DNA from: a bacterium
GTDB lineage: Bacteria > Muiribacteriota > UBA9980
Direction: 5' to 3'
Assembly (NCBI GenBank): GCA_029557635.1
Contig: JAKQIG010000287.1
Coordinates: forward strand, 1-25,601
Length of the DNA: 25,601 nucleotides
In this document: one piece after another, positions 1,130 through 7,366 of the stretch
How the letters are laid out: the number at the start of each line of letters is the position of its first letter
How positions within the stretch are numbered: the first letter of the stretch is position 1
Position numbers and translations under genes: made by a program
The notes under the pieces: generated by a model
What the model was told of the DNA's origin: nothing
The model's database searches: none
Seen by the model: the letters and a program-made list of their open reading frames with translations, nothing else

Positions 1130-2161
1130 ATGTCGTTTATTTCCAGAAGTTATCGTTCGATCATAATCGCCGTTATAACCGTCATCCTCGCGGCGTCGGC
1201 CGCGTACTGCCAGCAGGCTAAAAAAATCACCGTCGGCGTTTCCCTTCCCACACAGCGTGAAGAACGCTGGGTGCGCGACGCCAGGCAGCTCGAAGATGAA
1301 GCTAAAAAACGCGGAATCGAGATAAAAATGCAGATTTCCGACAACGACGCCATGAAACAGGTCGCCCAGTGCGAAAATTTAATCGCGGGCGGAATCGATA
1401 TTCTCATACTCGCCCCTCACGACGCCACCGGCGCCGCCCCCATCGTAGAAAACGCCCATAACGCCGGAATAAAAGTCATATCCTACGACAGGCTCATATT
1501 AAACGCCGACTGCGACCTCTACGTTTCATTCGATAACGAAAAAGTCGGCGAGCTCCAGGGAGAATTCATAACCAGAACCGTGCCCAAAGGCAATTATATA
1601 ATACTTTCAGGCTCGCCCACCGATAATAACGCCGCTATGTTTAAAGCCGGCGCCATGAAGATTATAAAACCGCTCGCAGATAAGGGCGATATCAAAATAG
1701 TTATGGAACAGGCAGTTAAAGACTGGCAGCCCTCCGAAGCCATGAAAATCGTAGAAAACGCCCTCACGGCCAACGATAATAAAATAGACGCCGTGCTCGC
1801 GCCAAACGACGGCACCGCCGGCGGCGCAATACAGGCCCTCGCCGCGCAAAAAATGGACGGCAAAGTAACCGTAACCGGTCAGGACTCGGAACTTTCCGGC
1901 GCGCAGAGAATCGCCGAAGGCTCCCAATCCATGACCGTCTTTAAAGACACCCGCAAACTGGCCATAGCCGCAATCGACGCCGCGGAAAAAATCCTTTCTT
2001 CAAAAGAAGTCGAAATCACAAAAAAAATCAATAACAATAAAAGCGATATCCCGGCGCTGCTTCTCACCCCCGTCGCCGTCGATAAAAGCAATATAGACAA
2101 AGAACTGATAGAAAGCGGTTACCTCACTAAAGAAGAAGTCTATAAAAACGTTAAAAAATAA
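1130..2161 (+). CDS. xylF: D-xylose ABC transporter periplasmic substrate-binding protein (XylF-like), with signal peptide.
   Basis: N-terminal hydrophobic signal peptide. From memory, strong identity to E. coli XylF, including YDRLI, ISFDNEKVGELQ, NNKIDAV...APNDGTAGGAIQAL and LLTP(V/I)...KNNI blocks. Periplasmic-binding-protein type I fold family. Confidence 0.85.
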   Translation: MSFISRSYRSIIIAVITVILAASAAYCQQAKKITVGVSLPTQREERWVRDARQLEDEAKKRGIEIKMQISDNDAMKQVAQCENLIAGGIDILILAPHDATGAAPIVENAHNAGIKVISYDRLILNADCDLYVSFDNEKVGELQGEFITRTVPKGNYIILSGSPTDNNAAMFKAGAMKIIKPLADKGDIKIVMEQAVKDWQPSEAMKIVENALTANDNKIDAVLAPNDGTAGGAIQALAAQKMDGKVTVTGQDSELSGAQRIAEGSQSMTVFKDTRKLAIAAIDAAEKILSSKEVEITKKINNNKSDIPALLLTPVAVDKSNIDKELIESGYLTKEEVYKNVKK

Positions 2162-3752: not shown

Positions 3753-4937
3753 ATGCAGGATAACGAAACGTCCCTATATCAAACCGCCGTAAATTCGTTC
3801 AAAAACAATTTCCGGCAGTACACCATGATAATAGCCCTGGCGGCCATATGGATAATATTCACTTTCGCCACGAACCACATATTTATCACGCCCCGGAACC
3901 TTTCAAATCTATTCCTGCAGACCGTTCCGGTCGCAATACTGGCCGCCGGAATGACGCTTATCATAGTCACCGGCAATATTGACCTTTCGGTCGGCGCGCT
4001 CGCCGGATTTTGCGGCGCCGTGGCCGCCGTTTTACAGGTCAAATACCAGTTCGGCACTTTCAGCGTTATCCTCGCCGCGCTCGGCGTCGGATTGGTAATA
4101 GGCCTCTGGCACGGTTTCTGGATCGCATATCAGAAGGTCCCGGCTTTCATAGTTACGCTTTCAAGCATGCTCGCCCTGCGCGGCGCAGTGCTCGGCGTCA
4201 CCGACGGAATGACCATCGGACCCATGCAGGACTCGTTCAAGGCAATCGGCCAGAAATACCTGCCGCCTTACTTTTCCGCCGGAGCCGGTTTTAACGATTC
4301 AAGCCTCGCGGTGGCCCTGATATGCATAACGCTTTTTCTAATATTCGACTGGAACGGCCGCAGAGCCAGAATTAAATTCGGTTTCGAAGTCCTTCCACTC
4401 AACGCCCAGATCCTCAGAATGACGCTTATAGCTCTGGCCATGGCGGCTTTCTTTTCAGTAATGATCTTCTACCAGGGCATAGCCTACAGCGTCCTGCTGC
4501 TTATCGCCATAACGGTTGTTTTCAGCTTCGTCTCCACCGACACCGTATTCGGCCGCAGGCTTTATGCGATAGGCGGAAACGCCGACGCCGCCAGGCTCTC
4601 CGGAATAAATATCGAGAAAAATATCCTGATGCTATACCTGATCTACGGCGTCCTCACCGCCGTGGCCGGAGTCGTCCTCACCGCACGCCTCAACGCCGCC
4701 ACAACATCGGCCGGCACTAATATGGAACTCGACGCGATCGCCGCCGCCGTTATAGGCGGAACAAGCCTGCTCGGCGGCGAAGGTACCATCGTCGGCGCGA
4801 TAATCGGCGCGCTTATAATGGCAAGCCTCGATAACGGAATGAGCCTTATGAATATGAATATCACTTACCAGTATATAATAAAGGGCATGATCCTGCTGTT
4901 CGCGGTCTGGCTCGATATTTACAACCGCAGAAAATAA
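3753..4937 (+). CDS. xylH: Sugar ABC transporter permease (XylH-like).
   Basis: About 10 predicted TM helices. Length (394 aa) and position directly after xylG match XylH. Conserved AraH/XylH-type C-terminal region (ARLNAAT...[10 protein letters not shown]). Confidence 0.85.
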
Positions 4938-4965
4938 GCCGTTTTAAATACTTTGTTTTTTGATA

Positions 4966-5000
4966 AGGGAAGGCAAGGGACCAAAGGCCCCTTCCTTCCC
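4966..5000 (+). terminator. Candidate terminator hairpin after xylH.
   Basis: GGGAAGG-CAAGGG...CCCTT-CCTTCCC stem-loop followed by TTAAAAT. A second small hairpin CCGGC-ttttct-GCCGG at 5052..5068 is followed by a U-rich tract. Confidence 0.4.
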
Positions 5001-5191
5001 TTAAAATCCCTTCCAACCCCAAATCAGCCTGACGCTTTATTAATGTGAAGTGCCGGCTTTTCTGCCGGATCTTTAATTCTGCTATGCTTTTTTCTTAAAT
5101 CGCTACAAATTCTTTTTTGATTATCCTTTATTTTCCTTAACTGCCAAAATTTCTTTTCGCTTTGTTTTTCTGTTTTTTGTTTCTGTTTTTT

Positions 5192-5220
5192 GCAGACGCG
5201 CGCTTACGCTCGCGTCTGCG
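5192..5220. other. Perfect 9-bp inverted repeat / stem-loop (GCAGACGCG-cgcttacgct-CGCGTCTGC) preceded by a ~100-nt pyrimidine-rich tract.
   Basis: Seen directly in the sequence; the hairpin is not followed by a U-run on either strand, so it is not a canonical terminator. Confidence 0.5.
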
Positions 5221-5311
5221 CTGCAATAATGGCTTGCTGGTTAGTTAACTTAAGGGTTTTATATTTACTTTTCGGTTAATCAACTTTTATTTAATTTGCT
5301 TTTAAGCTTGT

Positions 5312-5453
5312 AGCAGGGGCCAGACAAAATTTTTGAGGAGCGTTGCGGAGGCCCTGGAGCCCAGGGAGGGGCGAGAAGGGCCGAGCACGAGCGGCAAAAA
5401 TCCCGGAGGGATTTTTGAACGAGTCTCCGAAAAAACTTGTCTGGTACCCTGCC
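5312..5453 (+). ncRNA. Structured ncRNA candidate, copy 1 (rod-like, 6S-RNA-like architecture).
   Basis: The 5' end AGCAGGGGCCAGACAAAATTTTTGAGGAGCG pairs with the 3' end CGAGTCTCCGAAAAAACTTGTCTGGTACCCTGC, giving a long interrupted closing helix. Internal hairpins CCCTGG-AGC-CCAGGG and AAAAATCCC-GGA-GGGATTTTT. No ORF. Paralogous to 5559..5754. Confidence 0.5.
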
Positions 5454-5558
5454 CAAAACTACCAGCTAAAATACAAAAGTTCTTGTTTAAAAAACGATAA
5501 ATTTTTATAAAAAAACTTTCAGGTTAAAATCCATTGTTTAAATTGTTTTTAAGCTTTT

Positions 5559-5754
5559 AGCAGGGGCCAGAATAATTTTTGAAGGGGTGTAGCGGAATCG
5601 CCGGAGCCCAGGGATGGGCGAGATCGGGGCACGGATGCCCTAATGCAGCACGCGCCATGGACGGCAACGGCGTGCTGCGGCGCTGAGCTCAAGCGGCTAA
5701 AATCCCGGAGGGATTTTAGAACGCGTCCCCTAAAAAAATTATCTGGCGCCCTGC
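5559..5754 (+). ncRNA. Structured ncRNA candidate, copy 2 (paralog of copy 1 with a ~55-nt GC-rich insertion).
   Basis: Same terminal sequences as copy 1 (AGCAGGGGCCAGA...TCTGGCGCCCTGC). Compensatory changes relative to copy 1 maintain the helix (ACAA:TTGT becomes ATAA:TTAT; GGAG:CTCC becomes AGGGG:CCCCT). Conserved AAAATCCC-GGA-GGGATTTT hairpin. Extra hairpins at 5626..5640 (GGGCA-cgga-TGCCC) and 5645..5678 (GCAGCACGC...GCGTGCTGC). Confidence 0.5.
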
Positions 5755-5776
5755 CCAAACTACTAGCTAAAATGCA

Positions 5777-5952
5777 AAAGAACCTGTTTTAAGTTTTAAT
5801 AATGGTCATATAAAATTTTAAGAGCTGATACATGAAGCGTTTTAATTTATATAAAGCTCGCTGGGCGAGCCCCAGCCTTAACTATTCACTATCCACTCTG
5901 CACTATTCACTGATAAATTTCCCGAAAGAACCTGTTTTAAGTTTTAATAATG
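5777..5952 (+). repeat. 28-nt direct repeat AAAGAACCTGTTTTAAGTTTTAATAATG at 5777..5804 and 5925..5952; a variant (AAAGTTCTTGTTTAA) follows ncRNA copy 1 at ~5474..5490.
   Basis: Exact 28/28 match read directly. Each occurrence sits just 3' of a (g/c)caaaag tail that follows the ncRNA copies. The third occurrence, with the conserved ccc + aaagaacc context, looks like a 3' remnant of a further ncRNA copy. Confidence 0.5.
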
Positions 5953-6049
5953 AAAATAAAACAATAATTTAACTCGTAAATTTTAATTGAAATTAAAGAT
6001 AATTCAAAGTATAATATACTGATTAATTTTATAAAATTTCGGAGGCGCA

Positions 6050-7366
6050 ATGTATATTAAAAACGAAAAACTCGGCAGCGAAAAACTTAGATTATATAAT
6101 CTTTTCCCTCGCCTCGCCGGCAATATGACCGAGTGGGCCAAACACCTGCCACGCATCGCGGCGATGAACTTCAACTCCGTTTATATCAACCCTTTTCACT
6201 ATGCCGGATTTTCGGGTTCCCTTTACAGCCCTTCGGATTACTACCGTTTTAATGATCTTTTTATCGACGGCTCTTCAAAATTAAAGCCGGTGGAGCAGCT
6301 TAAACGCTTTATAGACGAGGCGCATAAACTCAACCTGAAAGTCATAATGGACCTGGTAATAAACCACACGGCCATCGATTCGCCACTTACTAAAGAACAC
6401 CCCGACTGGTATCTGAAAAACGCCGAAGGAAAGATAAAAAACCCCGGCGCCATGCACGACGGTAAAATGGTCCTGTGGGGCGATCTCGCCGAAATCGATA
6501 ACGCCGCTTCTAAAGATATCGATAACCTCTACGAATTCTGGCGCAAACTTGTAATGTACCACCTGGACCTCGGTTTCGACGGGTTCAGATGCGACGCCGC
6601 ATACCAGGTGCCTTCTAAATTATGGAAGTTTTTAACGCGCCACGCCAAAAGCAAATATCCCGAAACTTTATTTATCGCCGAAAGCCTCGGCTGCACTATA
6701 GAAGACGCTATCGTCCTCGCGGAATCCGGCTTCGACTACACGTTCAACAGCTCGAAATACTGGAACTTCAACGAACCATGGCTCATCAAACAATATAAAG
6801 ACTCTTTCGAAAAAGTCCGCGGCGTGCCTTCTATCGGTTTCGCCGAATCGCACGATACGCCGAGGCTCTTCAACGAATTAAAAGGCAATGTGGACGCGAT
6901 TTACCAGCGCTGCCAGTTCGTTTCGTTCTTCGCCAGCGGCCTCATGGTCCCCTGCGGCCTCGAATTCGGCTTCAAAAAAGAAATGAACGTAGTCACCACC
7001 ATGCCGTCCGACTGGGAAAACACCGGCATAGACATAAGCGGTTTCTTCAAGAAAATCAACGATATCAAAAACCGTTACAAAATTTTAAACGAGGAATGCG
7101 AGCTTCAGGTGGTAGATCAACCCAACTGGATGAACGTTTTCTGCTTCAGAAAAATATCTTTCGACTCCTCCGAACGCATACTTTGCATTGTAAATAAAGA
7201 CGTTCATAGCCATCAGTTCGTGCAGTTCAGCGATATAAACGCCGCCATCGGCTCCGCCGGCGAAGTTATCGACATTTCTCCGCTTTATACGCTCGAATCC
7301 GTTAATAGAAATTTCGAATATAATCTCAGGCCCGGACAGCTGATATTGCTTTACGCAAAAAATTAA
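6050..7366 (+). CDS. GH13-family alpha-glucan enzyme, GlgE-like (alpha-1,4-glucan:maltose-1-phosphate maltosyltransferase catalytic domain only).
   Basis: GGAGG SD 7 nt upstream. LFPR motif, LPRIAAMNFNSVYINP, VIMDLVINHT (GH13 region I, DxxxNH) and GFDGFRCDAAYQVP (region II GFRxD). Good collinearity with the GlgE catalytic core recalled from Mycobacterium/Streptomyces, without the N-terminal GlgE domains. Confidence 0.7.
   Translation: MYIKNEKLGSEKLRLYNLFPRLAGNMTEWAKHLPRIAAMNFNSVYINPFHYAGFSGSLYSPSDYYRFNDLFIDGSSKLKPVEQLKRFIDEAHKLNLKVIMDLVINHTAIDSPLTKEHPDWYLKNAEGKIKNPGAMHDGKMVLWGDLAEIDNAASKDIDNLYEFWRKLVMYHLDLGFDGFRCDAAYQVPSKLWKFLTRHAKSKYPETLFIAESLGCTIEDAIVLAESGFDYTFNSSKYWNFNEPWLIKQYKDSFEKVRGVPSIGFAESHDTPRLFNELKGNVDAIYQRCQFVSFFASGLMVPCGLEFGFKKEMNVVTTMPSDWENTGIDISGFFKKINDIKNRYKILNEECELQVVDQPNWMNVFCFRKISFDSSERILCIVNKDVHSHQFVQFSDINAAIGSAGEVIDISPLYTLESVNRNFEYNLRPGQLILLYAKN

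Follow-up and report, generated by a model that had tools for sequence, protein, structure and literature searches.

An undescribed structured module with covarying helices, amplified within a composite intergenic repeat of Wallbacteria

Closest described systems

The small RNAs of the Csr/Rsm type (CsrB and CsrC, as well as RsmX, RsmY and RsmZ) measure 100-350 nt and present several GGA motifs in C-G-closed loops (CANGGANG) and in linkers. They are often paralogous and sometimes adjacent. All are confined to Gammaproteobacteria, where BarA-UvrY/GacA drives them, and no genome is known to have more than about nine. Here we describe a pair of structured units that resemble these RNAs in part. 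They lie in a stretch of 25,601 nt (the window; contig JAKQIG010000287.1 of assembly GCA_029557635.1) from a bacterium whose lineage has CsrA proteins labelled Wallbacteria by NCBI. The analysis placed the window in GCA_022703765.1, a metagenome-assembled genome from a digester. The spacer that holds both units separates an ABC permease gene (3753-4937) from a GH13-like gene (6050-7366). The two units belong to an undescribed, covariation-supported structured module, which is amplified inside a composite repeat in Wallbacteria.

The units share with the Csr/Rsm RNAs the GGA motifs in C-G-closed loops, the adjacent paralogues and a host that encodes CsrA. However, there is no sequence or covariance-model similarity between the two groups. 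The units occur in a candidate phylum with FliW. Unlike the Csr/Rsm RNAs, they have a long helix joining their ends and are embedded in a dispersed composite repeat.

The second described group is TwoAYGGAY, which consists of two neighbouring hairpins with AYGGAY loops. It is assigned to Clostridia, and hairpins of this kind were proposed earlier as CsrA binders (PMC4333381). The insert of the second unit has the same layout, a short hairpin, a linker of 3-4 nt and a long hairpin. Nevertheless, it belongs to a larger fold, of which it is an optional part. A partial match of this insert to the Rfam model (RF01731) scored 18.8 bits (E = 8.5), where 43 bits would be needed, and we rejected membership on this score. 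The other units had no match.

The third group comprises dispersed repeats. The pneumococcal BOX (boxA-boxB(n)-boxC), the enterobacterial BIME/REP and the Neisseria Correia elements occur in dozens to hundreds of intergenic copies. They are modular (A-B(n)-C), with a variable number of inner parts and strong hairpin potential. They have no transposase of their own and may be transcribed. The dispersed intergenic A-B(n)-C composition is also found in our composite repeat, at about 40 loci. In contrast, its inner unit is much larger (150-200 nt) and has a covarying multi-helix fold with invariant loop motifs. Solo copies have promoter-like and terminator-like signals, and no sequence relationship links the unit to these repeats.

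At the Rfam gathering threshold, the whole window matched no family, including 6S RNA (RF00013). The loci of four relatives gave no family at threshold either. With E values up to 10, positions 4900-6100 gave only chance-level matches, again without 6S. No tRNA or tmRNA gene was found. The option of an undescribed family, left open by an earlier sequence-only reading of this DNA, therefore stands.

Fold, covariation and copy number

The sequence-only reading had described two adjacent elements with near-identical ends and hairpins, and every sequence feature that it listed is present where it was placed. Both copies contain GCAGGGGCCAGA (at 5313 and 5560) and AAATCCCGGAGGGATTT (at 5398 and 5700). 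In the alignment they are 81% identical, and copy 2 has an insertion of 55 nt. The compensatory differences already noticed between the copies are real (ACAA:TTGT against ATAA:TTAT, and GGAG:CTCC against GGGG:CCCC). There are more of them in helices P3 and P4.

We folded each copy and compared it with 200 dinucleotide-preserving shuffles, none of which was as stable. The RNA fold of copy 1 (5310-5455) has -72.3 kcal/mol (z = -6.05), and that of copy 2 (5557-5758) has -102.8 kcal/mol (z = -5.96). The shape differs from the rod with an internal bubble that had been suggested. It is a Y, with a long closing helix (P1/P1b/P2) and a junction with two arms. The arm P3-P4-P5 is tipped by a hexaloop, and the arm P6 by a GGA triloop. 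Copy 2 has two additional hairpins within P4, and many other units have an insert of the same type. A coding sequence is an improbable explanation, as neither the 55-nt insertion nor the paired substitutions fit one. The open reading frames of the spacer, found on both strands, are short (46-69 amino acids).

The fold is under selection in the relatives. In an alignment of 22 short units, 97% of the cells pair, and both partners vary in 10 of the pairs. The covariation score, 0.147, exceeds that of shuffles (0.055; none of 500 got as high) and that of controls with slid partners (0.01-0.03). We also aligned 30 diverse units with MAFFT, including a divergent clade with P1 = GCGGGUG...CACCCGC. 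RNAalifold recovered the same helices de novo from this set. In this set, 11 pairs vary in both partners and 99.4% of the cells pair. The score rises to 0.197, whereas shuffles give 0.069 (none of 500 got as high) and slid controls 0.02-0.03. The covariation is concentrated in P4. Of its six pairs five covary, and seven or more versions with full complementarity exist. The unpaired loops and junctions are nearly invariant and more conserved than the stems. Invariant loops with covarying stems are the pattern of a single-stranded molecule with a sequence-specific partner. Thus, the proposal of a selected single-strand fold from an undescribed family gained strong covariation once homologues were added.

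Homologous intergenic regions were found in relatives, two of which have dozens of copies each. One genome per species was scanned for exact matches to the 19-mer of the P6 hairpin, and this gave 89 loci. About 35 belong to each of two metagenome-assembled genomes (MAGs), 'bacterium ADurb.Bin243' and 'JPNA_metabat.86'. Five more are in Candidatus Wallbacteria GWC2_49_35 and two in another MAG. In the remaining loci, which are from unrelated taxa, the covariance model detects no unit; these are most probably matches by chance. From the 604 kb of loci that were fetched, this model, built from the 22 short units, recovered 66 full-length units and about 20 partial ones. In the window it found only the two known units, and in the chance loci none. 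The fetched loci give lower bounds of at least 33 units in at least 26 loci for ADurb.Bin243 and at least 43 units in at least 36 loci for JPNA_metabat.86.

BLAST shows further copies of the whole unit, frequently arranged in tandem at intervals of ~240 nt. Nearly the whole spacer (~4955-5920) is repeated at about 40 other loci. The extent proposed at first, 5296-5790, was consequently too short. A tandem pair is present in the gene-free spacer as described, though it is not an isolated one. It is the inner part of a dispersed composite of ~1 kb. A known repeat family would have refuted the sequence-only reading. The composite is a repeat family, but not a known one. The order of modules is constant in the about 40 loci: a left arm (L1-L2), one to three units plus partial units, a trailer (T1) and an optional module X. 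All the copies are intergenic, and their orientation to the neighbouring genes has no clear bias.

At orthologous loci, ADurb.Bin243 and JPNA_metabat.86 both carry the element but differ in how many units it has and of which type. A single unit in L014, for instance, corresponds to two and a fragment in its orthologue L092. Orthologous units of the same type are more conserved than the adjacent intergenic DNA (92.5 vs 85.4%, 99.3 vs 96.5% and 84.5 vs 76.1%). At least 15 contig ends fall within a unit. The repeat explains these assembly breaks in uncultured bacteria.

A metagenome scan with a degenerate P3-P5 pattern gave true units only in digester, aquifer and activated-sludge contigs of the same lineages. 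Its soil matches were rejected as chance. The units seeded from metagenomes have P6 variants CCU-GGA-GGG, which form U-G pairs. A divergent unit (114 bits, with compensated changes) is at L110 4746-4887 (-), on a phage-like IMG/VR contig of 38.8 kb, beside a gene for a phage tail assembly chaperone (PF16778). Two direct repeats of gataattattac are just upstream of it. The curated phage and plasmid collections had no match to the unit.

Candidate CsrA decoys and competing readings

The P5 loop has the form C-[A-N-GGA-K]-G in 58 of the 62 units, and its N is most often U (34), followed by G (14), C (8) and A (2). The loops of the copy 2 insert, ACGGAU and AUGGAC, are also closed by C-G. The motif CANGGANG occurs four times in the window units, always on the + strand, with one hexaloop in copy 1 and three in copy 2. 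Each copy has a GGA triloop besides. This motif is the published Rsm/CsrA consensus (PMC6849547, citing Schubert 2007). As a separate observation, the whole window has 18 such sites, compared with 5.4 expected from shuffles. The 14 outside the units are mostly on the minus strand, inside the large genes at ~11.2-23.4 kb, several times as CATGGACG. This excess is probably a codon effect.

Since the loops match the optimal CsrA/RsmE site, RNAs made from the units would most likely be CsrA decoys. We give a probability of about 0.4 to the reading that the units encode small RNAs titrating CsrA, as a family amplified within a mosaic repeat. Each unit would be a gene-like module for a structured small RNA of ~150-250 nt, encoded on the + strand. 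Its closing helix would join both RNA ends, with the two arms above. The P5 hexaloop (A-N-GGA-N, closed by C-G) would be one binding site, to which the longer units would add two C-ANGGAN-G hairpins inside P4. Such RNAs would bind CsrA dimers away from mRNAs, as RsmZ and CsrB do. In this Wallbacteria lineage the module has been multiplied to dozens of copies, and it forms the inner part of the composite, variable in number. Unit number and type differ between orthologous loci, presumably by recombination. Binding and titration of CsrA by the units is suggested by the loop motif, and we propose it tentatively, at somewhat under even odds.

Units with unrelated flanks (solo units, and those in distant Wallbacteria-like contigs) share a block, YTCTTWTTCRTTT..TRGGTAAA, at 13-30 nt before P1. 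In L136, L120, L158 and L069, a same-strand hairpin with a U-run follows the unit at 45-90 nt. The box GGTTAAAAT before copy 2 is homologous to the shared block. From these signals, we consider it moderately probable that the units are transcribed and that the transcribed strand is the + strand.

The lineage has a canonical CsrA. The protein of JPNA_metabat.86 (L069) is 51% identical to B. subtilis CsrA over 59 residues, and its gene is downstream of two fliW paralogues and a flagellin-like gene. In the assembly of the window, csrA adjoins two fliW genes (L101). A solo unit is found beside csrA in L069. It occupies 1174-1371 (+), convergent to csrA at 1514-1768 (-), with some 140 nt between it and the csrA stop codon. 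The gap between the genes measures 522 nt in L069, compared with 238 nt and no unit at the same place in the genome of the window. This adjacency is unmatched at four other Wallbacteria csrA loci.

Several results weigh against CsrA-titrating RNAs. The at least 33-43 units per genome are several times any known Csr/Rsm RNA set, and the polar composite with its sharp left end resembles a mobile or mosaic repeat. None of the Csr, Rsm and TwoAYGGAY models reached its threshold in the window or in the loci of the four relatives. Each unit has 5.7 GGA compared with 5.3 in dinucleotide-preserving shuffles, without significant enrichment, so the case for CsrA depends on the position and conservation of these motifs. 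Two of the four conserved GGAs, in purine-rich internal loops, may be structural. The counts of G-U and A-C pairs (3 vs 2 and 26 vs 25) are uninformative on the strand and by themselves do not separate RNA from single-stranded DNA. In the window, copy 1 has no -10-like box, and no terminator was detected downstream of the two copies (z = -0.4). Ten csrA loci found with four Wallbacteria CsrA proteins, the genome of the window included, have no unit, and we therefore rejected a conserved csrA-unit synteny. Finally, no sponge RNA is known from a lineage with FliW, and BarA-UvrY and fliW are anti-correlated in their occurrence (PMC7652899).

CsrA RNA antagonists are established only in Gammaproteobacteria, and elsewhere FliW is thought to fill this role (PMC7652899). 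It is doubtful, though conceivable, that a candidate phylum bearing FliW also uses RNA decoys of CsrA, of a new structural class and amplified by a composite repeat to dozens of genes in each genome, with at least one phage carrying a copy. If true, this would be the first Csr/Rsm-type sponge system outside Proteobacteria, and the repeat copy number would set the sponge capacity. A covarying, motif-bearing family alongside CsrA and FliW would give a direct handle on RNA sponges outside Proteobacteria. Moreover, it is a large structured module that behaves as a dispersed repeat, and its more than 60 natural sequence variants are available for structure work.

The first competing reading takes the composite as a selfish or structural mosaic intergenic repeat of the BOX, BIME/REP or Correia type, or as a non-autonomous derivative of an IS200/IS605-like element. 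The hairpins would be kept for recognition as single-stranded DNA or cruciforms during spread, or to stabilise or terminate neighbouring transcripts, and the GGA loops would be incidental. This reading is the main rival, and we consider it rather unlikely. In its favour are the dozens of intergenic copies without orientation bias, the contig ends inside units, the copy on a phage-like contig, and the modularity, with one to three inner units, partial units and unit types swapped at orthologous sites. The left boundary also speaks for it. This edge is the same in 41 unrelated flanking contexts, where a T-run is followed by TTGAT (31 of the 41 copies) and a strong hairpin. Complete copies end in ...CACTRAT (CTGAT or CTAAT), which recalls IS200/IS605 cleavage sites. 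Elements of this kind (PATE-like) insert 3' of a fixed tetra- or pentanucleotide, have subterminal hairpins and leave no duplication. In the composite, TTGAT is possibly part of the element, the end hairpins are mutually unrelated, and no Y1 transposase was seen in the flanks.

Other signs of transposition were looked for and not found. No target-site duplication is visible in the left flanks of 41 copies, nor in those right flanks that were inspected. No clean empty site was found, and the sole candidate pair (L024 and L078) is too diverged to define the insertion ends. The search for multicopy open reading frames near about 75 loci (about 600 kb of flanking sequence) gave kinases, ABC ATPases and orthologues only, with nothing transposase-like. 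Terminal inverted repeats of the miniature inverted-repeat transposable element type are lacking, as the composite ends AAGGGAAGG... and ...CACTRAT are not mutually inverted. Likewise, P1 is internal, and the conserved sequence runs 25-45 nt past it on both sides. The covariation is centred on an internal 6-bp helix of a branched fold with invariant loops. This is the pattern of a protein-bound RNA, unlike transposon ends. In addition, armless solo units retain the promoter-like block and the terminator-like hairpin.

A second reading keeps a genuine family of structured small RNAs and gives it a partner other than CsrA. It could be another RNA-binding protein or RNase, or the RNA could be an antisense or base-pairing regulator acting via its conserved, single-stranded tail, or a phage-host conflict RNA. 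The evidence of structure and conservation serves this reading as well as that of CsrA decoys. Also in its favour are an unpaired, conserved 3' tail (CUACCNGCUAAAAUGCAAAGGAAC), the lack of statistical GGA enrichment and the copy on the phage-like contig. Against it, the only recognisable motif is C-ANGGAN-G, one to three times per unit and with free N, which is the CsrA consensus (PMC6849547). We regard this alternative as unlikely.

A cis-regulatory leader of the GH13-like gene, either a tandem riboswitch or an attenuator, is very improbable. The units are upstream of this gene and on the same strand. Nevertheless, units of this family are beside unrelated genes in either orientation, the genes downstream of units have no consistent functional class, and no riboswitch family was matched. 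A promoter-like site of its own precedes the GH13-like gene at 5987-6015 (TTGAAA, 17 nt, TATAAT; 11 of 12 consensus positions), downstream of the repeat, so the gene is probably independent of transcription through the element.

The weakest alternative, raised with reserve by the sequence-only reading as a 6S-like form, was 6S RNA or a pair of 6S paralogues binding the RNA polymerase holoenzyme, and we dismiss it. Length (140-195 nt) and paired ends are alike, whereas every feature that was compared failed: no model match even at E up to 10, a two-arm junction with small internal loops only in place of a large central bubble, and dozens of copies per genome instead of one or two.

Modules of the composite and minor features

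The positions of the modules in the window are collected in the table.

Table. Features of the composite repeat in the window, with the evidence for each.
Feature	Position	Strand	Basis
Left arm (L1-L2); sharp left edge with T-run and TTGAT (4960-4964)	4955..5262	+	About 40 matching loci; 38 arms aligned
Terminal hairpin of the left arm, AAGGGAAGGC-N-AGG...CCU-N'-CCUUCCCUU	4965..5002	+	Fold; N:N' is G:C, A:U, C:G or U:A across copies
Near-invariant GC-rich 12-bp hairpin in L2, GCAGACGCGCGC-ttac-GCTCGCGTCTGC, followed by GCTGCAATAATGGCTTGCTGG	5192..5219	+	Alignment of arms; fold
Conserved 5' block of unit 1 (TTTAATTTGCTTTTAAGCTTGTA)	5287..5312	+	Aligns with the block upstream of copy 2 and with other units
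Structured unit, copy 1 (short class): P1/P1b/P2, P3-P4-P5 and P6	5313..5452	+	Fold; covariation; covariance-model score 175 bits
P5 hexaloop of copy 1, CAGGGAGG (fits CANGGANG)	5362..5369	+	Fold and motif scan
P6 hairpin of copy 1, AAAAAUCCC-GGA-GGGAUUUUU	5396..5416	+	Fold; the stem-closing pair covaries (A:U, G:C, U:A)
Single-stranded conserved 3' tail of copy 1 (CCAAAACUACCAGCUAAAAUACAAAAG...)	5453..5492	+	Alignment of units
-10-like box GGTTAAAAT, ~30 nt upstream of copy 2 (putative function)	5522..5530	+	Homologous to GGGTAAA(A/T), which lies upstream of solo units from relatives
Structured unit, copy 2 (class with insert)	5560..5754	+	Fold; covariance-model score 124.6 bits
Insert of copy 2, hairpin loops ACGGAU (5626-5640) and AUGGAC (5645-5678)	5624..5680	+	Alignment, fold and motif scan
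Trailer T1, after the last unit	5776..5832	+	Repeats at other loci
Module X: hairpin GCTCGC-TGG-GCGAGC (5856-5870) and four TNCACTN heptads (5885-5912)	5848..5915	+	Repeats at other loci
Second copy of the T1 start (direct repeat of 5776-5806), bracketing module X	5917..5947	+	Sequence comparison

The region of the L2 hairpin folds stably (5180-5290, z = -4.8). In both left-arm hairpins the T-run precedes the stem and does not follow it, so they are terminator-like on neither strand. The left arm also has a leftward promoter-like site at 5147-5120, where 10 of 12 positions agree with the consensus. On its minus strand, L1 is rich in GGA and gave a very weak match to PrrB_RsmZ (11.8 bits, E = 6.3).

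The right side of the composite is a mosaic of T1, partial units and the small module X. At many loci (L027, L092, L076, L045 and others) the last letters of the trailer are GCAUCCAUG, which is exactly complementary to the CAUGGAUG loop in the next partial unit, so the GGA loop would be buried in a stem in those copies.

The heptads of module X are TTCACTA, TCCACTC, TGCACTA and TTCACTG. The module is also found at L033 2872-2939 and at L038 4670-4737. Because copies exist both within the composite and apart from it, and because in L033 it lies left of the L1 arm, it is probably a separate small repeat. In the window it probably forms the right end of the copy. On its minus strand, UUUAUAU follows the hairpin.

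Finally, L024 (about 2060-2085) and L078 (about 2480-2505) have short hairpins, GGGCCAGATAAT-ATT-TATCTGGCCC, which resemble a P1 closing helix without its core. They may be deletion footprints of units.

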